DNA of 64,000 nt. It comes from Escherichia coli (GTDB taxonomy: Bacteria; Pseudomonadota; Gammaproteobacteria; Enterobacterales; Enterobacteriaceae). The translations under genes and the position numbers were made by a program. Of this stretch, positions 13 through 63,980 are shown piece by piece (the stretch's first letter is position 1; each line of letters starts with the position of its first letter). The notes beneath the pieces are model-generated. The model made no database searches, was not told the origin of the DNA, and saw only the letters and a program-made list of their open reading frames with translations. The DNA lies in the NCBI RefSeq assembly GCF_030013595.1, contig NZ_CP122768.1. The stretch is one strand, 5' to 3'.

Positions 13-1470
13 ATGAAAACACCCTCACAGCCGCGCGCGATATACTATATCGTGGCGATCCAAATCTGGGAGTACTTCAGTTTTTACGGCATGCGTGCCT
101 TACTCATTCTCTATCTCACCCATCAGCTTGGTTTTGATGATAACCATGCCATCAGCCTGTTCAGCGCATATGCTTCTCTGGTTTACGTTACCCCTATTCT
201 CGGCGGCTGGCTTGCCGACCGCCTGCTCGGCAACCGCACTGCAGTGATTGCCGGCGCGCTGTTAATGACCCTTGGCCATGTGGTGCTGGGCATTGATACA
301 AATTCAACCTTTAGCCTGTATCTGGCGCTGGCAATCATTATTTGTGGCTACGGTTTATTCAAATCAAACATCAGCTGTTTGCTTGGCGAGCTCTACGACG
401 AGAACGATCATCGACGTGATGGCGGTTTTTCGCTGCTGTATGCTGCAGGCAATATCGGTTCTATCGCCGCCCCCATCGCCTGCGGCCTGGCTGCTCAGTG
501 GTATGGATGGCATGTTGGCTTTGCCCTTGCGGGTGGCGGCATGTTTATCGGTTTGTTGATTTTCTTAAGCGGTCATCGTCATTTCCAGTCCACGCGTAGT
601 ATGGATAAGAAAGCGCTCACTAGCGTCAAATTTGCCTTACCAGTATGGAGCTGGTTAGTGGTGATGCTCTGTTTAGCCCCAGTATTTTTTACCCTGCTGC
701 TGGAGAACGACTGGTCCGGATATTTGCTGGCGATCGTTTGCCTCATTGCAGCACAAATCATTGCCCGCATGATGATCAAATTCCCCGAACACCGCCGTGC
801 TCTTTGGCAAATTGTATTGTTGATGTTTGTCGGGACGTTGTTCTGGGTACTGGCACAACAGGGCGGCAGTACCATCAGCTTGTTTATCGATCGCTTTGTG
901 AATCGTCAGGCATTCAATATTGAAGTACCTACAGCACTATTCCAGTCGGTGAATGCCATTGCGGTGATGCTCGCTGGGGTTGTTCTGGCCTGGCTGGCGT
1001 CGCCAGAAAGCCGCGGCAATTCAGCATTGCGCGTCTGGCTGAAGTTTGCCTTTGGCTTACTGCTGATGGCTTGTGGCTTTATGTTGCTGGCATTTGATGC
1101 CCGACATGCAGCGGCTGGCGGTCAAGCGTCAATGGGCGTGATGGTATCCGGGCTGGCGCTAATGGGCTTTGCTGAACTCTTTATTGACCCGGTGGCGATT
1201 GCGCAAATCACGCGTCTGAAAATGTCTGGCGTATTAACCGGTATTTATATGCTGGCAACAGGCGCGGTCGCCAACTGGCTGGCAGGCGTCGTGGCACAGC
1301 AGACGACAGAGTCGCAAATTAGCGGTATGGCAATTGCCGCTTACCAGCGATTCTTTTCTCAGATGGGAGAGTGGACGTTGGCTTGTGTCGCGATCATCGT
1401 GGTATTGGCCTTTGCTACCCGTTTTCTGTTTAGCACGCCGACGAATATGATACAGGAGAGCAACGATTAA
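13..1470 (+). CDS. dtpC: Dipeptide/tripeptide:proton symporter, POT family
   Basis: ORF track 13..1470, 485 aa; polytopic membrane protein matching recalled DtpC/YjdL; AAGGAG RBS at 2..6; lysU immediately downstream as in E. coli. Confidence 0.92.
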
Positions 1471-3235: not shown

Positions 3236-3269
3236 ATGAACGAAGCAGTCAGGCGACTGCTTCGTTCAT
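3236..3269. terminator. 15-bp perfect inverted repeat hairpin between convergent lysU and ghoT
   Basis: atgaacgaagcagtc / loop aggc / gactgcttcgttcat read directly; no strong T-run, so function as a terminator is inferred from position. Confidence 0.4.
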
Positions 3270-3342
3270 CATTCCGCAAATCCAGTTTTGAGGAGAGACG
3301 CTTCGTTTCACGATAACCAGCGGGTCCACTCAACTACAGCTC

Positions 3343-3516
3343 CTAAAAGAGAGAAAAAAGTAATGCCACAGGCAGACTCATTGGCCAGGTTATTCCTACC
3401 AGGAATGCACTAAGTAAACGAATATGTGTTTTCTCATGTGAGATAAACCAGATAATGACAAAGGATATGTTCACACCAATCACATAAAAAATTAATATTT
3501 TAGAGAATAGTGCCAT
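3343..3516 (-). CDS. ghoT: Type V toxin GhoT, small membrane-lytic peptide (57 aa)
   Basis: Not in ORF track (under 60 aa). Hand translation of the minus strand from ATG at 3516 to TAG at 3343..3345 gives MALFSKILIFYVIGVNISFVIIWFISHEKTHIRLLSAFLVGITWPMSLPVALLFSLF; hydrophobic, directly downstream of ghoS. Confidence 0.88.
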   Translation of the reverse strand: MALFSKILIFYVIGVNISFVIIWFISHEKTHIRLLSAFLVGITWPMSLPVALLFSLF

Positions 3517-3543
3517 TTTTTATGTTCTTCTTATCCTTCCTGG

Positions 3544-3840
3544 CTACTTGTAAAACTGACGGAAATAGTCATCAACGGTCATAATGTTGAGGTCAAAGTC
3601 AATATCCGGTAAGTCTAAGCATTTAAGCCTGATTAAATCTTCGATTTCACTTGCGGCTAACGATGTCGTTATTGCGAAGGAGTTTTCATTCAATTGTCGT
3701 GGTATCCCATATTCATCAGCCACGATAGAGGAGAAATTCATATCATACATCAATGATCTTAACCTTAAGAACACTGAGGAATAAGATGATGGATAATCAA
3801 AAGAAACAACATAAGTATTGAACTTGTTTTTACCTTCCAT
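3544..3840 (-). CDS. ghoS: Type V antitoxin GhoS, endoribonuclease specific for ghoT mRNA
   Basis: ORF track 98 aa, ATG start at 3840 preceded by GGAG; sequence matches recalled GhoS/YjdK; ghoT lies 27 bp downstream on the same strand. Confidence 0.9.
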   Translation of the reverse strand: MEGKNKFNTYVVSFDYPSSYSSVFLRLRSLMYDMNFSSIVADEYGIPRQLNENSFAITTSLAASEIEDLIRLKCLDLPDIDFDLNIMTVDDYFRQFYK

Positions 3841-10866: not shown

Positions 10867-11496
10867 ATGACCCGCACACTCAAGCCGTTAATTCTTAACA
10901 CCGGCGCACTGGCGCTAACGTTAATCCTGATTTATACCGGCATTTCGGCCAATGACAAACTCACCTGGCTGATGGAAGTGACACCGGTGATTATTGTCGT
11001 GCCGCTACTGCTTGCCACCGCTAAACGTTATCCGTTAACGCCGCTGCTCTATACGCTCATTTTCTTTCACGCCATCATCCTGATGGTCGGCGGACAATAC
11101 ACCTACGCGAAAGTCCCCGTTGGTTTTGAGGTGCAGGAATGGCTGGGGTTGAGTCGTAATCCGTATGACAAACTGGGGCATTTTTTCCAAGGGCTGGTGC
11201 CTGCACTGGTGGCACGAGAGATCCTTGTGCGCGGGATGTACGTTCGCGGACATAAGATGGTGGCGTTTCTGGTCTGCTGCGTGGCGCTGGCGATAAGCGC
11301 GATGTATGAATTAATCGAGTGGTGGGCGGCGCTGGCAATGGGTCAGGGAGCGGATGATTTTCTCGGCACCCAGGGCGACCAGTGGGACACGCAATCCGAT
11401 ATGTTCTGCGCGCTGCTTGGCGCATTAACGACGGTGATATTCCTCGCTCGCTTTCATTGCCGCCAGCTACGGCGCTTTGGCTTGATAACCGGATAA
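10867..11496 (+). CDS. yjdF: Inner membrane protein of unknown function
   Basis: ORF track 209 aa, ATG start; multiple hydrophobic helices; position between fumB and melB matches E. coli. Confidence 0.88.
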   Translation: MTRTLKPLILNTGALALTLILIYTGISANDKLTWLMEVTPVIIVVPLLLATAKRYPLTPLLYTLIFFHAIILMVGGQYTYAKVPVGFEVQEWLGLSRNPYDKLGHFFQGLVPALVAREILVRGMYVRGHKMVAFLVCCVALAISAMYELIEWWAALAMGQGADDFLGTQGDQWDTQSDMFCALLGALTTVIFLARFHCRQLRRFGLITG

Positions 11497-11515: not shown

Positions 11516-11611
11516 GCCGGATGCGGCGTGAATTCCTTATCCGGTCTACAAAATTTGCAAATCCAAAGCATTACATTAAGACATGGCCTGATAAACATAT
11601 CGCATCAGGCC
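11516..11611. repeat. REP elements (two palindromic units)
   Basis: gccggatgcggcgtgaattccttatccggtctaca (11516..11550) and ggcctgataaacatatcgcatcaggcc (11585..11611) resemble E. coli REP consensus units. Confidence 0.7.
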
Positions 11612-30832: not shown

Positions 30833-30908
30833 GCCGGATAAGGCGCTCGCGCCGCATCCGGCAACGATGCCGACAGCCTGATGCGACGCTGACCGCGTCT
30901 TATCAGGC
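30833..30908. repeat. REP elements (two units) between yjdM and yjdN
   Basis: gccggataaggcgctcgcgccgcatccggc and gcctgatgcgacgctgaccgcgtcttatcaggc read directly. Confidence 0.7.
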
Positions 30909-30973
30909 TTCCCTCTCATCTGTATAAATTTCGAACTACACTTAACTGGCTTCTCTTAACTGAGGTCACCATC

Positions 30974-33379: not shown

Positions 33380-33439
33380 TGTGCTCGATCGGTCCCCTCT
33401 CCCACAGGGAGAGGGAGAAAACATTAAACGGAGCAATAT

Positions 33440-34219
33440 ATGCAAACCATCACCATCGCCCCACCCAAGCGCAGCTGGTTCTCGCTTCTGAGCTGGGCCA
33501 TTGTTCTCGCCGTGCTGGTCGTCTCGTGGCAGGGCGCGGAAATGGCCCCGCTCACGCTGATTAAAGACGGCGGCAACATGGCAACCTTCGCCGCCGACTT
33601 CTTCCCGCCCGATTTCAGCCAGTGGCAGGATTACCTCACCGAAATGGCCGTCACGCTGCAAATCGCCGTCTGGGGCACCGCGCTGGCGGTGGTTCTCTCC
33701 ATCCCCTTCGGTCTGATGAGCGCCGAAAACCTAGTGCCGTGGTGGGTTTACCAGCCCGTACGCCGCCTGATGGACGCCTGCCGCGCCATTAACGAAATGG
33801 TCTTCGCCATGCTGTTCGTGGTCGCCGTCGGCCTTGGCCCGTTCGCTGGCGTGCTGGCGCTGTTTATCCACACCACCGGCGTGCTCTCCAAACTGCTTTC
33901 CGAAGCGGTAGAAGCAATTGAACCCGGCCCGGTGGAAGGTATTCGCGCCACCGGTGCCAACAAGCTCGAAGAGATCCTCTACGGCGTGCTGCCGCAGGTG
34001 ATGCCGCTGCTGATCTCCTACTCCCTCTATCGCTTCGAATCCAACGTCCGTTCGGCCACCGTTGTTGGCATGGTCGGCGCTGGCGGGATCGGCGTCACCC
34101 TGTGGGAAGCGATTCGCGGTTTCCAGTTCCAGCAAACCTGCGCCCTGATGGTGCTGATTATCGTCACGGTCAGCCTGCTGGATTTCCTCTCTCAACGGTT
34201 GCGTAAGCACTTTATCTGA
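33440..34219 (+). CDS. phnE: Phosphonate ABC transporter permease, apparently intact
   Basis: ORF track 259 aa uninterrupted; ABC permease EAA-like region; two tandem near-identical octamers gctggcgt/gctggcgc at 33845..33860 with the reading frame open. Confidence 0.9.
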
Positions 34220-37063: not shown

Positions 37064-37901
37064 TCTGAGCGGCTACAACTTTGCCTACCTCGACGAGCAG
37101 ACCAAACGCATGATCCGCCGCGCCATCTTAAAAGCGGTGGCGATCCCCGGTTATCAGGTGCCGTTTGGCGGGCGCGAGATGCCGATGCCGTACGGCTGGG
37201 GAACTGGTGGTATCCAGCTTACCGCCAGCGTGATTGGCGAAAGCGACGTGTTGAAGGTGATTGACCAGGGTGCGGATGACACCACCAACGCCGTGTCGAT
37301 TCGCAACTTCTTTAAGCGCGTGACCGGGGTAAACACCACTGAACGTACGGACGATGCGACGCTTATCCAGACGCGTCACCGCATCCCCGAAACGCCGCTG
37401 ACCGAAGATCAGATCATTATCTTCCAGGTGCCAATCCCGGAACCGCTGCGCTTTATCGAGCCACGCGAAACGGAGACCCGCACTATGCACGCGCTGGAGG
37501 AGTACGGCGTGATGCAGGTGAAACTGTATGAAGATATCGCCCGCTTCGGTCATATCGCCACCACCTATGCTTATCCGGTGAAGGTGAACGGGCGCTACGT
37601 GATGGACCCGTCGCCGATCCCGAAATTCGATAACCCGAAAATGGACATGATGCCCGCCCTGCAGCTGTTCGGCGCAGGGCGCGAGAAGCGCATCTATGCG
37701 GTGCCGCCGTTTACCCGCGTGGAAAGCCTCGATTTCGACGATCACCCGTTCACCGTTCAGCAGTGGAATGAGCCATGCGCCATCTGCGGATCGACCCACA
37801 GCTATCTTGATGAAGTGGTGCTGGATGACGCCGGAAACCGCATGTTTGTCTGCTCCGATACCGATTATTGCCGCCAACAGAGCGAGGCGAAAAGCCAATG
37901 A
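37056..37901 (+). CDS. phnJ: C-P lyase catalytic subunit PhnJ (Fe-S / radical SAM-dependent)
   Basis: ORF track 281 aa; C-terminal Cys cluster CAICGSTHSYLDE...CSDTDYC. Confidence 0.93.
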   Translation: MANLSGYNFAYLDEQTKRMIRRAILKAVAIPGYQVPFGGREMPMPYGWGTGGIQLTASVIGESDVLKVIDQGADDTTNAVSIRNFFKRVTGVNTTERTDDATLIQTRHRIPETPLTEDQIIIFQVPIPEPLRFIEPRETETRTMHALEEYGVMQVKLYEDIARFGHIATTYAYPVKVNGRYVMDPSPIPKFDNPKMDMMPALQLFGAGREKRIYAVPPFTRVESLDFDDHPFTVQQWNEPCAICGSTHSYLDEVVLDDAGNRMFVCSDTDYCRQQSEAKSQ

Positions 37902-38656
37902 ATCAACCGTTACTTTCGGTCAACAACCTGACCCACCTTTACGCGCCGGGCAAAGGCTTTAGCGATGTCTCTTTTGATTTATGGCCGGGGGAAGTGCTAG
38001 GCATCGTCGGGGAATCCGGCTCCGGGAAGACCACGCTGCTGAAATCAATCTCCGCGCGCCTGACGCCGCAGCAGGGGGAAATTCACTATGAAAACCGTTC
38101 CCTCTATGGCATGAGCGAGGCCGACCGCCGTCGCCTGCTGCGCACCGAATGGGGCGTGGTGCATCAGCATCCGCTCGACGGCCTGCGCCGCCAGGTGTCG
38201 GCAGGCGGCAATATCGGCGAGCGGCTGATGGCGACCGGGGCGCGTCATTACGGCGACATCCGCGCCACCGCGCAGAAGTGGCTGGAAGAGGTGGAGATTC
38301 CCGCCAACCGGATCGACGACCTGCCGACCACCTTTTCCGGCGGCATGCAGCAACGTTTGCAGATTGCCCGCAACCTGGTGACGCATCCGAAGCTGGTGTT
38401 TATGGACGAGCCAACCGGCGGGCTGGATGTATCGGTACAGGCGCGCCTGCTCGATCTGCTGCGCGGTCTGGTGGTGGAGCTGAATCTGGCGGTGGTGATT
38501 GTCACCCACGATCTGGGCGTCGCCCGCCTGCTGGCGGACCGTTTGCTGGTGATGAAACAGGGGCAAGTGGTGGAGAGTGGGTTAACCGACCGCGTGCTCG
38601 ACGACCCTCACCATCCATATACCCAGCTGCTGGTGTCATCGGTTTTGCAGAATTGA
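37898..38656 (+). CDS. phnK: C-P lyase-associated ABC-type ATPase PhnK
   Basis: ORF track 37868..38656; the ATG at 37898 ([11 protein letters not shown]) gives 252 aa; Walker [10 protein letters not shown]. Confidence 0.92.
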
Positions 38657-38662
38657 GCCAGT

Positions 38663-38745
38663 GCCGGATACGGCGTAAACGCCTTATCCGGCCGACAAAT
38701 GCGCTCCCCGTAGGTCGGATAAGACGCGTCAGCGTCGCATCCGAC
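38663..38745. repeat. REP elements (two units) inside the phn operon between phnK and phnL
   Basis: gccggatacggcgtaaacgccttatccggcc and taggtcggataagacgcgtcagcgtcgcatccgac read directly. Confidence 0.7.
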
Positions 38746-38766
38746 ACCCGAACCACGAGGCGAAAA

Positions 38767-39447
38767 ATGATTAACGTACAAAACGTCAGTAAAACCTTCA
38801 TCCTGCACCAGCAAAACGGCGTGCGCCTGCACGTCTTACAACGTGCCTCGCTCACCGTCAACGCAGGCGAATGCGTGGTGCTCCACGGCCACTCCGGCAG
38901 CGGCAAATCAACTCTGCTGCGCTCGCTGTACGCCAACTATCTGCCCGATGAAGGGCAAATCCAGATCAAACATGGTGACGAGTGGGTAGACCTGGTCACT
39001 GCACCAGCGCGCAAAGTGGTGGAGATCCGCAAAACCACCATCGGCTGGGTGAGCCAGTTTCTGCGCGTCATCCCGCGTATTTCGGCACTGGAAGTGGTGA
39101 TGCAGCCTCTGCTCGATACCGGCGTACCGCGTGAAGCCTGCGCCGCTAAAGCCGCCCGATTACTGACGCGCCTGAACGTGCCTGAACGCCTGTGGCACCT
39201 GGCACCATCGACCTTCTCCGGTGGCGAACAGCAGCGTGTCAACATCGCCCGTGGCTTTATCGTCGACTACCCCATTCTGCTGCTCGACGAACCTACCGCC
39301 TCGCTGGACGCTAAAAACAGCGCCGCCGTAGTGGAACTGATCCGCGAAGCCAAAGCCCGCGGCGCGGCCATCGTCGGTATCTTCCATGACGAAACCGTGC
39401 GCGAGCAAGTCGCCGACCGCCTGCACCCAATGGGAGTCTCTTCATGA
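38767..39447 (+). CDS. phnL: C-P lyase-associated ABC-type ATPase PhnL
   Basis: The same frame is open from 38149 (ORF track), but the ATG at 38767 ([11 protein letters not shown]) follows the REP-containing intergenic region and gives 226 aa with Walker [10 protein letters not shown]. Confidence 0.9.
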
Positions 39448-40580
39448 TTATCAATAACGTCAAACTGGTGCTGGAAAACGAGGTGGTACACGGTTCTCTG
39501 GAGATGCAGGACGGCGAAATCCGCGCCTTTGCCGAAAGCCAGAGTCACCTGTCAGAAGCAATGGACGGCGAAGGCGGCTGGCTGCTACCGGGGCTGATTG
39601 AGCTGCATACCGATAATCTGGATAAATTCTTCACCCCGCGTCCAAAAGTGGACTGGCCCGCCCACTCGGCAATGAGTAGCCACGACGCGCTGATGGTGGC
39701 GAGCGGCATCACCACCGTGCTGGACGCGGTGGCGATTGGCGACGTGCGCGACGGCGGCGATCGGCTGGAGAATCTGGAGAAGATGATCAACGCCATCGAA
39801 GAGACGCAGAAACGCGGCGTCAACCGCGCCGAGCACCGTCTGCATCTGCGCTGCGAACTGCCGCATCACACCACGCTGCCGCTGTTTGAAAAACTGGTGC
39901 AGCGCGAACCGGTGACGCTGGTGTCGCTGATGGATCACTCGCCGGGCCAGCGCCAGTTCGCCAATCGCGAGAAGTATCGCGAATATTATCAGGGCAAATA
40001 CTCGCTCACCGATGTGCAGATGCAGCAGTACGAAGAGGAACAGCTGGCGCTTGCCGCACGCTGGTCACAGCCTAATCGCGAAACTATCGCCGCAATGTGC
40101 CGCGCGCGACACATTGCGCTCGCCAGCCACGATGACGCCACGCACGCGCACGTTGCCGAATCTCACCAGCTTGGCAGCGTGATCGCCGAATTTCCCACCA
40201 CGTTCGAAGCGGCAGAAGCCTCGCGCAAGCATGGCATGAACGTGCTGATGGGCGCGCCGAATATCGTGCGCGGCGGTTCGCACTCCGGCAACGTGGCGGC
40301 CAGTGAACTGGCGCAGCTTGGCCTGCTGGATATCCTCTCTTCCGACTACTACCCCGCCAGCCTGCTCGATGCGGCATTTCGCGTCGCCGATGACGAGAGC
40401 AACCGCTTTACGCTGCCGCAGGCGGTGAAGCTGGTGACTAAAAATCCGGCGCAGGCGCTTAATCTTCAGGATCGCGGAGTGATTGGCGAGGGCAAACGCG
40501 CCGACCTGGTGCTGGCGCATCGCAAGGGCAACCACATTCATATCGACCACGTCTGGCGTCAGGGTAAAAGGGTGTTCTGA
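39444..40580 (+). CDS. phnM: PhnM, amidohydrolase-family ribosyl-triphosphate phosphonate diphosphohydrolase
   Basis: ORF track 378 aa; ATGA overlap with phnL. Confidence 0.92.
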
Positions 40581-42318: not shown

Positions 42319-42345
42319 GGGAAAATACCCGCGCCGGCCCCTATA

Positions 42346-42743: not shown

Positions 42744-43061
42744 TCAATTTCTCCGCTGCTCTATTGCCGTAATCGCCTCCACGCGTTGTTGATGACGACC
42801 GCCTTCGTACTGCGCGCCCAGCCACGCATCCACAATCATTTTTGCCAGTTCGAGGCCAACCACTCGTGAACCAAAAGCCAGTGCAACTTCACTGGCGTAA
42901 TGCGGATAATCAGTGCGCTCTGACGGCCTGGTTTCTTTATCAATCCCCTCACTCATTGACCATGAATAAAAGGCTGGCACAGCAACGCGGAATCCTGCGG
43001 TGCCAGCGACATGACCGCCCATTGCTCCGGTACGTTTTTTAATAAAAAACACCGGTTGCAT
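42744..43061 (-). pseudogene. rpiB: rpiB-like remnant (ribose-5-phosphate isomerase B family), shortened and rearranged
   Basis: ORF track 105 aa; segments SERTDYPHYAS-VALA and FGSRVVGLELAKMIVDAWLGAQYEGGRHQQRVEAITAIEQRRN match recalled E. coli RpiB (149 aa) but are joined with about 50 residues missing, and the N-terminal 38 residues do not align. Only about 250 bp separate it from the yjcS start. Confidence 0.5.
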
Positions 43062-43313
43062 TGATTAATTGTGCTCAGTATTTGCCGAAGTACAATATAT
43101 ATAATAAATATATAAAACACCTCATATTATTTACAGAAATAATGAATTCGCGTAATTTTCCCTCTTCAGCACAAATGCCTAATAAAATGGCGCGTTCAGC
43201 TCACACTTCTACTTATTAAAGTCGCAATTTCCCAATTATGATAACGCCAGCTTCAAATGACGTATTTTGCATGGGTTACATATTTACGACATAAATGATA
43301 AATGGAGATTTAT

Positions 43314-45299
43314 ATGAATAACTCTCGGTTATTCCGTTTGAGCAGGATTGTTATTGCGTTAACTGCCGCCAGCAGCATGATGGTAAATACCGCTAATGCG
43401 AAAGAGGAAGCGAAAGCCGCCACTCAATATACCCAACAGGTTAATCAGAATTACGCCAAATCATTACCGTTTAGCGATCGTCAGGATTTTGACGATGCCC
43501 AGCGTGGATTTATCGCCCCGCTGCTGGATGAAGGTATTCTGCGTGATGCTAACGGCAAAGTTTACTACCGCGCAGACGATTACAAATTTGATATTAATGC
43601 CGCTGCGCCGGAAACCGTAAACCCCAGCCTGTGGCGTCAGTCGCAAATCAACGGTATTTCTGGCCTGTTCAAAGTCACCGATAAAATGTATCAGGTGCGC
43701 GGCCAGGATATCTCTAACATTACGTTCGTTGAGGGCGAGAAAGGCATTATTGTTATCGACCCGCTGGTGACGCCGCCTGCCGCAAAAGCCGCACTTGATC
43801 TTTACTTCCAGCATCGTCCGCAAAAACCGATTGTTGCTGTTATTTACACCCACAGCCACGCCGACCATTATGGCGGTGTGAAAGGCATTATCTCTGAAGC
43901 GGATGTTAAATCCGGCAAAGTGCAGGTGATCGCTCCGGCAGGCTTTATGGACGAAGCCATCAGCGAAAACGTGCTGGCGGGTAACATCATGAGCCGCCGT
44001 GCGCTCTACTCTTACGGTCTGTTACTGCCGCACAACGCGCAAGGCAACGTGGGCAACGGCCTGGGCGTGACGCTGGCAACCGGCGACCCGAGCATTATTG
44101 CACCGACTAAAACTATCGTCAGAACTGGCGAGAAGATGATTATCGACGGCCTGGAATTTGACTTCCTGATGACTCCGGGTAGCGAAGCGCCAGCCGAAAT
44201 GCACTTCTATATTCCGGCCCTGAAAGCCCTGTGTACCGCCGAGAACGCCACGCATACCCTGCACAACTTCTACACTCTGCGCGGCGCGAAAACCCGCGAT
44301 ACCAGCAAGTGGACCGAGTACCTGAACGAAACGCTGGATATGTGGGGTAACGACGCGGAAGTACTGTTTATGCCGCACACCTGGCCGGTCTGGGGCAATA
44401 AGCATATCAATGATTATATTGGTAAATATCGCGATACCATCAAGTACATTCACGACCAGACCCTGCACCTGGCGAACCAGGGCTACACCATGAATGAAAT
44501 CGGCGACATGATTAAGCTGCCGCCTGCGCTTGCCAATAACTGGGCCAGCCGCGGCTATTACGGTTCTGTCAGCCACAACGCCCGCGCGGTGTATAACTTC
44601 TATCTTGGCTATTACGACGGTAACCCGGCTAACCTGCATCCGTATGGTCAGGTGGAGATGGGTAAACGTTACGTGCAGGCGCTGGGCGGTTCTGCCCGTG
44701 TCATCAACCTGGCGCAAGAAGCGAACAAGCAAGGTGATTACCGCTGGTCGGCAGAACTGCTGAAACAGGTGATTGCCGCCAACCCTGGTGACCAGGTCGC
44801 GAAGAATCTGCAAGCGAATAACTTTGAACAGCTGGGCTATCAGGCCGAGTCCGCCACCTGGCGCGGTTTCTACCTGACCGGCGCGAAAGAGCTGCGCGAA
44901 GGGGTACATAAGTTCAGCCACAGCTCCACCGGTTCCCCGGACACCCTTCGCGGGATGTCGGTCGAAATGCTATTCGACTTTATGGCCGTTCGCCTCGATA
45001 GCGCGAAAGCCGCAGGTAAGAATATCAGCCTGAACTTCAATATGAGCAACGGCGATAACCTCAACCTGACGCTGAACGATAGCGTGCTTAACTACCGTAA
45101 AACGCTGCAACCTGAAGCCAACGCCTCTTTCTACATCAGCCGTGAAGATCTTCACGCCGTGCTGACCGGACAAGCCAAAATGGCGGATCTGGTAAAAGCG
45201 AAGAAAGCCAAAATTATTGGCAATGGCGCGAAACTGGAAGAAATTATTGCCTGTCTGGATAATTTCGATTTGTGGGTGAATATCGTAACCCCAAATTAA
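43314..45299 (+). CDS. yjcS: Secreted metallo-beta-lactamase-fold alkyl/aryl sulfatase-like protein
   Basis: ORF track 43302..45299; the ATG at 43314 (MNNSRLFRL) has GGAG 6 bp upstream; signal peptide; HxHxDH motif ([10 protein letters not shown]); about 661 aa. Confidence 0.9.
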
Positions 45300-53475: not shown

Positions 53476-53478
53476 GGT

Positions 53479-53513
53479 AGGCCTGATAAGACGCGTTAAG
53501 CGTCGCATCAGGC
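53479..53513. repeat. REP element between convergent yjcO and gltP
   Basis: aggcctgataagacgcgttaagcgtcgcatcaggc read directly. Confidence 0.7.
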
Positions 53514-63935: not shown

Positions 63936-63944
63936 CCCACAATT

Positions 63945-63980
63945 GCCGGATGCGGCGTATAACGCCTTATCCGGTCTACA
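63945..63980. repeat. REP element downstream of acs
   Basis: gccggatgcggcgtataacgccttatccggtctaca read directly. Confidence 0.7.

Follow-up and report, generated by a model that had tools for sequence, protein, structure and literature searches.

A REP doublet between phnK and phnL of the Escherichia coli phn operon, probably a mobile element in a pre-existing gap

Between phnK and phnL of the Escherichia coli phn operon lies a stretch of 110 bp that contains two REP palindromes. This locus raises the question of whether the palindromes are there to control the operon, or whether they occupy a place that a mobile element could enter without breaking anything. A preliminary description of the locus had favored the former; that is, it proposed that the REP pair may set different stoichiometries for phnC-K and phnL-P. 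We examined this question in a window of 64,000 nucleotides of E. coli DNA (the whole stretch analyzed, from contig NZ_CP122768.1), and we compared the spacer with those of other E. coli genomes and of other Proteobacteria.

The phnK-phnL spacer and its two palindromes

The phn operon lies on the plus strand and runs from phnC (31550) to phnP (42318). The phnK coding sequence extends from 37898 to 38656 on this strand and encodes 252 aa, with its TGA stop codon at 38654-38656. For its start we adopted that of RefSeq phnK of an identical strain, mapped to the window; the longest ORF for phnK in the ORF list (37868-38656) has a TTG start. The phnK translation showed 99.6% identity to PhnK of K-12. 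The phnL coding sequence, also on the plus strand, extends from 38767 to 39447 (226 aa; ATG at 38767-38769), and its homologues align from residue 1. The spacer between the two genes occupies positions 38657-38766, exactly the 110 nt given in the preliminary description, and the K-12 junction is likewise 110 nt long. Besides this one, true gaps in the operon are found at phnC-phnD (24 nt), phnD-phnE (60 nt), and phnE-phnF (20 nt). Among the remaining junctions, overlap is seen in seven, direct abutment in one, and a gap of 1 nt in one, in agreement with the earlier statement that most phn genes overlap or abut each other.

The Shine-Dalgarno sequence of phnL, GAGG, is located at 38757-38760 on the plus strand, 6 nt 5' of the ATG and inside the 3' block of the spacer (CGAACCACGAGGCGAAAA). 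This block is common to the REP and BoxC alleles described below, and it is like the junction that other genera have in basal form (GAGGCCAACATG). Since the block with its GAGG is kept at the 3' end of the spacer, the REPs can be regarded as having been inserted after the stop codon and ahead of the Shine-Dalgarno sequence. A longer PhnL was also considered, from an ORF at 38149-39447 that crosses the spacer in the phnL frame, and it was rejected, because the alignment of the homologues begins with the ATG of position 38767, which has a good Shine-Dalgarno sequence.

On the opposite strand, another ORF crosses the spacer (38502-38936, minus strand, in the window; 412-687, minus strand, in another E. 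coli locus), and in some RefSeq E. coli genomes it is annotated as a "hypothetical protein". The supplement of a published RNA-seq study contains a 481-nt opposite-strand segment at the corresponding place in K-12 (4315582-4316062, old coordinates). This antisense ORF is probably spurious.

The first palindrome, REP-A, is a Y-type unit at 38663-38696 on the plus strand. It consists of GCCGGATACGGCGTAAACGCCTTATCCGGC and the tail CGAC, and it formed a hairpin in both the RNA and the DNA folds. Its arms (38663-38676 and 38679-38692), detected by an inverted-repeat search, are 14 nt long and 93% complementary, and the stem begins 6 nt past the phnK stop codon. Comparison of alleles showed that the tail is CGAC in this lineage as against CTAC in K-12 and five other strains. 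Because CGAC replaces the CTAC tail, REP-A may no longer be recognizable to the transposase. The second palindrome, REP-B, is a Z2-like unit in the inverted orientation (38710-38745, minus strand), with its GTAG head at 38710-38713 and the inner stem GCGACGCTGACGCGTC. The arms of REP-B found by the same search (38714-38727 and 38732-38745) are also 14 nt long and are 86% complementary; its outer stem, GTCGGAT/ATCCGAC, is a compensatory variant of the canonical GCCTGAT/ATCAGGC. The two units are mutually inverted, with their tails facing each other, and the tail-to-tail linker between them (AAAATGCGCTCCC, 38697-38709) is 13 nt long and has no IHF consensus.

The RNA fold of the spacer reached about -49 to -49.9 kcal/mol (z = -3.86) and the DNA fold reached -27.9 kcal/mol (z = -3.98), and in each case 0 of 200 shuffled sequences folded as well. 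In the minimum-free-energy RNA structure, the pairing extended into the stop codon of phnK, and the G and A of its UGA were paired. A pattern search for the IHF consensus gave no match in the spacer, and a consensus scan found no sigma-70-like promoter there. An intrinsic terminator, that is, a GC-rich hairpin with a T run, was absent from the plus strand between 38300 and 39100, and a T run follows neither hairpin.

We then compared both units with the REP family. A strict Z2-type REP consensus with three mismatches allowed missed both of them, owing to their loop length and stem variants. This pattern was replaced by blastn-short and alignment, and five further REPs were found in the 64-kb window (at about 11516-11544, 30833, 30876, 53477-53513, and 63944-63974), for a total of seven copies. 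In the alignment, REP-A fell among the Y-type copies (63941, 30866 on the minus strand, and 11513), and REP-B, which has a Z2-type inner stem, lined up with those of type Z2 (30873 and, on the minus strand, 53516). The seven copies formed one hairpin with 98.9% of the cells paired and 17 invariant columns; compensatory changes on both sides were seen in four of the 13 pairs, and the register-shifted controls were all paired at 47% or less. Aligned with the five other REPs of the window, both spacer units conformed to the family consensus that we used, an imperfect palindrome of about 35 nt (GCC(G/T)GATG.CG.CG...CG.C.TTATC(C/A)GGCCTAC). As the end tetranucleotide, REP-B has GTAG, and REP-A has CGAC, not CTAC. 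The pair is wholly extragenic, lying within the 110-nt spacer and starting 6 nt after the phnK stop codon, and the 91-nt core of the spacer occurs in at least 40 places per genome in 5,425 of 5,426 E. coli genomes. Both palindromes thus proved to be REPs, as the preliminary description had held, and to belong to the family that is spread over the E. coli genome. A second REP pair is present at 30833-30912, between yjdM (phnA) and yjdN, just 5' of the phn operon.

REPIN doublets are mobilized by the RAYT transposase TnpA-REP. The spacer pair, a Y-type and a Z2-like unit joined tail-to-tail, is a doublet of the BIME-2-like or REPIN-like kind; elements of this kind are already known, and this one is orthologous to the K-12 spacer. 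With E. coli REP/BIME-2 it shares the palindrome consensus, the GTAG/CTAC end (in REP-B), the extragenic site after a stop codon, the inverted arrangement of Y and Z2-like units, the short linker without an IHF site, and the high genomic copy number. In contrast to BIME-2, which typically forms multi-unit arrays, the phnK-phnL spacer holds a single pair with a 13-nt linker, and both the variant outer stem of REP-B and the CGAC of REP-A differ from the standard REP. BIME-1, which consists of Y and Z1 units and a long linker with an IHF site, does not match, in view of the 13-nt linker, the lack of IHF, and the long Z2-type inner stem. Since there is a single Y/Z2-like pair, with no IHF site, promoter, or T-run terminator, we classified it as BIME-2-like or REPIN-like, and neither as BIME-1 nor as an intrinsic terminator.

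An Rfam scan of 37500-40000 gave nothing beyond noise and matches to naRNA4 (RF02564), whose scores of 40.9, 39.0, and 29.5 bits were under the gathering threshold of 59.5. This nucleoid-associated ncRNA family is presumably derived from REP325, and it resembles the spacer only in the REP sequence that the two have in common. At phnK-phnL, no repeat_region is entered in the feature table of K-12 RefSeq. A REP or BIME in a well-studied operon is routine, and the chief value of the finding is a correct annotation.

The same slot in other strains and genera

We counted the alleles of the spacer over 5,426 complete E. coli genomes. The REP-pair allele was present in 4,839 of them (~89%), and a 176-nt BoxC allele, with two inverted BoxC palindromes in place of the REPs, in 546 (~10%). 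Together these two alleles account for 5,385 of the ~5,396 genomes that have the locus, which leaves at most ~11 genomes otherwise. A rare 136-nt allele is the REP-pair form with a 26-bp internal duplication. Bachellier et al. (1997) are said to have described polymorphism of BIME and BoxC among natural isolates.

In strain E22, an example of the BoxC allele (spacer at 458-633 of its locus), the palindromes are inverted triplex motifs of type B and type A, and the RNA of the BoxC pair folded at -99 kcal/mol (z = -8.1). The blocks of the BoxC allele match those in Table 1 of PMC4666352, where they are called the BoxC / PIT / TMECO triplex motif. This is a sequence family separate from the REP pair, but it fills the same slot in about a tenth of E. 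coli and, like REP, it is an intergenic palindrome tied to local sequence variability (PMC4666352). PIT elements had neither promoter nor terminator activity in earlier work (PMC4666352).

The preliminary description had regarded the absence of the REP from otherwise identical operons with the same expression as evidence against its proposal. Operons of this kind exist, at least with respect to sequence: the 546 genomes carry BoxC instead, and the phnK and phnL flanks of one BoxC-allele strain were no more divergent than those of REP-allele strains among themselves.

Over the test region, the window was 100% identical to strain HCP5S3_I2 and only ~95% identical to K-12. The phnK-phnL region of this strain (38300-39100 and its flanks) is unusually divergent: an identity of at least 99% over its 801 nt was found in 7 of 5,400 records, and most showed 93-97%. 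Pairwise differences between strains in the coding flanks of the spacer reach 5-8%.

The phnD-phnE spacer (33380-33439, 60 nt) also contains a hairpin of a repeat family, which the preliminary description had missed. It is a BoxC-type hairpin at 33393-33418 on the plus strand (CCCTCTCCC-ACA-GGGAGAGGG), that is, a BoxC half-element. Its core (33395-33415) had a fold z-score of -4.18, and it begins ~15 nt past the phnD stop codon. The window's allele of this spacer occurs in 1,505 of the 5,426 E. coli genomes, and K-12 has two REPs there instead of BoxC. The phnD-phnE slot thus shows the same alternation of REP and BoxC as the phnK-phnL slot.

For the comparison with other genera, 80 species-level loci encoding PhnK relatives were collected, and their junctions were measured by tblastn and ORF tracing. 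phnK and phnL did not overlap in 77 of 81 proteobacterial loci, and the median distance between them was +21 nt, whereas the medians of the I-J, J-K, and L-M junctions were all -4 nt. Several Enterobacteriaceae had a K-L junction of only 7-10 nt, with essentially just the stop codon, GAGG, and ATG, as in TAAGAGGCCAACATG of Citrobacter sp. FP75 and TAAGAGGCGAACATG of Leclercia; the junctions of Cedecea neteri, Hafnia, and an Enterobacter MAG were similar. These results show that the K-L gap is older than the REPs and represents an ancestral non-overlapping junction. K-L is the single junction of the phnG-P block that is generally without translational coupling in Proteobacteria, and its basal form is ~7-20 nt. 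The idea that the REP itself creates the discontinuity between phnK and phnL was rejected, because the gap is ancestral.

The same junction has received structured inserts in several other genera. Genus-specific palindromes of the REP type were found in Enterobacter cloacae (56 nt), E. asburiae (160 nt, three units), Kluyvera (67 nt), Pluralibacter (103 nt), Citrobacter werkmanii (107 nt), Cedecea sulfonylureivorans (81 nt), and four Pseudomonas species (82-152 nt). Structured inserts to which no REP family was assigned were found in Erwinia persicina (107 nt) and Stutzerimonas xanthomarina (190 nt), and the 298-nt spacer of Pseudocitrobacter has four BoxC units. All the inserts in other genera begin 4-12 nt past the stop codon, and those with a doublet had fold z-scores from -4.5 to -10.4. 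In total, about 15 of 81 species had structured inserts at K-L. Expansions at other junctions of the same loci were unstructured, and among the I-to-N junctions structured inserts recur at K-L only.

The preliminary description had called for a comparison of this spacer among Enterobacteriaceae, and the outcome is divided: some members do with 7-10 nt and no hairpin, which speaks against its proposal, while others carry REP types of their own, which speaks for it. As a whole, the occupant of the K-L slot is interchangeable: E. coli has a REP pair, its duplicated variant, or a BoxC pair there, and other genera have REPs of their own. The REP pair is neither a terminator nor a promoter, nor is it needed as a specific sequence.

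Several loci differed in other ways. Two loci of Rhodobacteraceae have ~1 kb between phnK and phnL, presumably due to the insertion of an extra gene, and in several alphaproteobacterial loci phnL and phnM are separated by 0.5-1.5 kb. In Pseudocitrobacter faecalis DSM 27453 (spacer at 3260-3557 of the locus), PhnK shares 99% and PhnL 97% identity with the proteins of the window, and the two are far nearer to these than are the PhnK and PhnL of other genera outside Escherichia. Such closeness suggests that the phn cluster was recently exchanged horizontally between P. faecalis and E. coli.

What the REP pair may do in the operon

We think it probable, at about 0.72, that a mobile REP doublet was inserted in a pre-existing permissive gap between phnK and phnL, and that its side-effects, if any, are modest and it is not an engineered stoichiometry switch. 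A mobile palindromic element would have entered between the phnK stop codon and the phnL Shine-Dalgarno sequence, and would later have been exchanged, with nothing broken. Its two hairpins would block 3'-to-5' exonucleases on the polycistronic phn mRNA and thereby give longer-lived phnC-K decay intermediates. The 110 structured nucleotides would part phnK from phnL, so that ribosomes would initiate on phnL independently, at the free Shine-Dalgarno sequence of that gene; a nearly coupled K-to-L translation would be replaced in this way, and some attenuation of the Rho type might occur. The first stem lies 6 nt past the UGA, which is within the range of less than 16 nt, and it might lower the efficiency of phnK termination or translation. 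An effect on phnK termination is plausible because the first hairpin lies so close to the stop codon and its pairing reaches the G and A of UGA. Judging from the general literature on REPs, the effects on mRNA decay, on K-to-L coupling, and on phnK termination are plausible, and any net effect would probably be modest.

The textbook role of REP is that its hairpins protect the upstream mRNA and dampen downstream expression. This is the very mechanism that the preliminary description invoked, and works on it are cited in PMC12306157. If it operates here as a selected punctuation, the REP pair would stabilize the phnC-K mRNA, attenuate phnL-P, and set the protein levels of the two halves of the operon. 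We regard this explanation as unlikely, but it survives better than the other rivals. Both E. coli alleles are very stable (-49 kcal/mol for REP and -99 kcal/mol for BoxC), and few if any E. coli genomes have a possible empty slot. In addition, the structured K-L inserts of the ~15 species include unrelated REP families of Pseudomonas, and the expansions of other junctions lack structure. On the other hand, close relatives do with 7-10 nt and no hairpin, the type of element is interchangeable, and the gap predates the REPs.

Published transcript data bear on the same point. A fermentation transcriptome table gives similar values for phnK (10.15) and phnL (11.41) in a column with high phn expression (PMC10080781), which does not favor a punctuation between them. 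In strand-specific RNA-seq of MG1655, a single phnC-P transcript was found at 2 h and 4 h of phosphorus starvation (PMC3734233); that is, the transcript is full length on induction. In the same study (PMC3734233), coverage fell along the operon under phosphorus starvation, a phnGHIJK transcript was assembled from the heat-shock sample, and a phnLMNOP transcript was assembled from time 0, all of which would suit a punctuation. However, the two shorter transcripts come from low-expression samples, and their boundaries at low coverage could reflect either a REP effect or poor mapping of reads in the repeat.

As for the products of the operon, PhnM-P are soluble enzymes. In Phn(GHIJKL)2, the ATPases PhnK and PhnL, bound 1:1, sit on the core complex as a double dimer, and neither of them can be dispensed with (PMC9947105). 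Since PhnK and PhnL pair 1:1 in this complex, a step in dosage between them is no obvious requirement. A position 3' of a binding-protein gene is a classic REP site, as at malE and hisJ. The intercistronic REPs of malEFG and hisJQMP (Higgins 1982; Newbury 1987) likewise lie inside a polycistronic operon, where protection of the upstream mRNA is expected, and they follow a binding-protein gene whose product is needed in excess. The phn counterpart of those REPs is the phnD-phnE slot, whose analogous hairpin 3' of the binding-protein gene is a point in favor of punctuation. In contrast, the phnK-phnL REPs separate two ATPase subunits that bind 1:1. A literature search for phnK/phnL together with REP found nothing relevant.

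The proposal that the REPs set the stoichiometry of phnC-K and phnL-P is thus partly supported: it stands as a generic possibility, to which the retention of stable hairpins and the sub-transcripts of low-expression samples lend some weight. As a statement about this operon it is not demonstrated, and it is weakened by the comparative data, that is, by the ancestral gap and the interchangeable occupant, in addition to the full-length phnC-P transcript and the 1:1 ratio of PhnK to PhnL.

A related idea is that K-L, and likewise D-E, is a convergently kept "hairpin slot", in which a stable RNA hairpin after the phnK stop codon is selected and its family is irrelevant. Candidates for such a hairpin are REP, BoxC, and the REP-type palindromes of the four Pseudomonas species. 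The purpose of such a slot could be to uncouple the synthesis of PhnK and PhnL or to protect the phnC-K segment of the mRNA. It would explain both the near-absence of empty slots in E. coli and the unrelated palindromes at the same spot in distant genera; the former could mean that the hairpin is selected and not merely tolerated. We consider this idea doubtful, and selection for some hairpin at K-L, of whatever form, improbable on the whole, though compatible with the data. The data are equally compatible with K-L being the only landing site, together with the known targeting and turnover of intergenic repeats. A neutral model can account for the recurrence of structured inserts at K-L alone in no other way than by the availability of the gap. 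The recurrent inserts may be independent gains, or they may go back to an ancient BIME that has turned over and been lost differently in each genus, and both histories fit the data.

Liang, Rudd and Deutscher (2015) reportedly described a stalling mechanism for REPs close to a stop codon. A mainly translational explanation would follow this line: REP-A near the UGA would stall terminating ribosomes, and tmRNA-mediated rescue would lower the output of PhnK. We give this explanation little credence. According to the rule summarized in PMC12306157, a REP less than 16 nt from a stop codon lowers translation of the upstream gene via ribosome stalling, and the distance of 6 nt is within that limit. 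The pairing of the G and A of UGA in the minimum-free-energy structure and the position of the inserts of other genera, 4-12 nt after the stop codon, point in the same direction. REPs within 15 nt of a stop codon reportedly down-regulate translation of the upstream gene (Liang, Rudd and Deutscher 2015, PMID 25891074); the closeness is the same here, where it is set by the narrow basal gap. That is, a gap of ~9 nt with the Shine-Dalgarno sequence at its 3' end forces any insert to lie near the stop codon, and the closeness is therefore not evidence of design. In addition, the phn genes are absent from the RepRanger supplements.

A role at the level of DNA appears very unlikely. According to this explanation, the pair would be a site for gyrase or nucleoid proteins that eases supercoiling in the induced 11-kb operon, or would be a source of nucleoid-associated REP RNA. 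The combination of Y and Z2-like units, closely spaced and free of an IHF site, does resemble BIME-2, gyrase cleavage of BIME-2 appears in the reference list of PMC12306157, and both hairpins match naRNA4 below threshold. However, the Y and Z2 units form a single pair here, the matches to naRNA4 reach 39-41 bits against the gathering score of 59.5, and BoxC replaces the REPs in 10% of E. coli while relatives have no element at all.

Finally, chance palindromes in a GC-rich spacer have practically no probability, as the general GC-richness of the region is all that speaks for them and they are already refuted by the shuffled sequences, of which none folded as well, by the compensatory changes within the family, and by the 40 or more copies per genome.

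The natural variants of the K-L spacer in E. coli (REP pair, 26-bp duplication, and BoxC pair), the REP and BoxC variants at D-E, and the empty junctions of related genera would allow a clean test of the effects of intra-operon REPs on mRNA stability and protein ratios, in a 14-gene operon with a known complex stoichiometry.

Other features of the operon and its surroundings

In K-12, the pseudogene phnE1 is annotated as starting (ATGCCGGATGCGG...) within a REP of the phnD-phnE spacer (11231-11336 of the locus; NC_000913.3 ~4323230-4323335), 51 nt upstream of the ATG that matches the start of the intact phnE of the window. This annotated start is probably an artefact. In the window, phnE is intact (33440-34219, 259 aa), while phnE of K-12 is a pseudogene through an 8-bp duplication. 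Since its phnE is intact, the strain of the window is probably able to use phosphonates.

K-12 has a BoxC pair directly 3' of phnP (2220-2333 of the locus), which is TMECO no. 22 of PMC4666352, whereas in the window phnP and yjdP are just 27 nt apart (42319-42345). Further downstream, rpiB seems to be truncated (105 aa as compared with 149 aa in K-12), and yjcS follows it directly (42744-45299 in the window). The genes alsRBACEK, which lie between rpiB and yjcS in K-12, have apparently been deleted in this strain.
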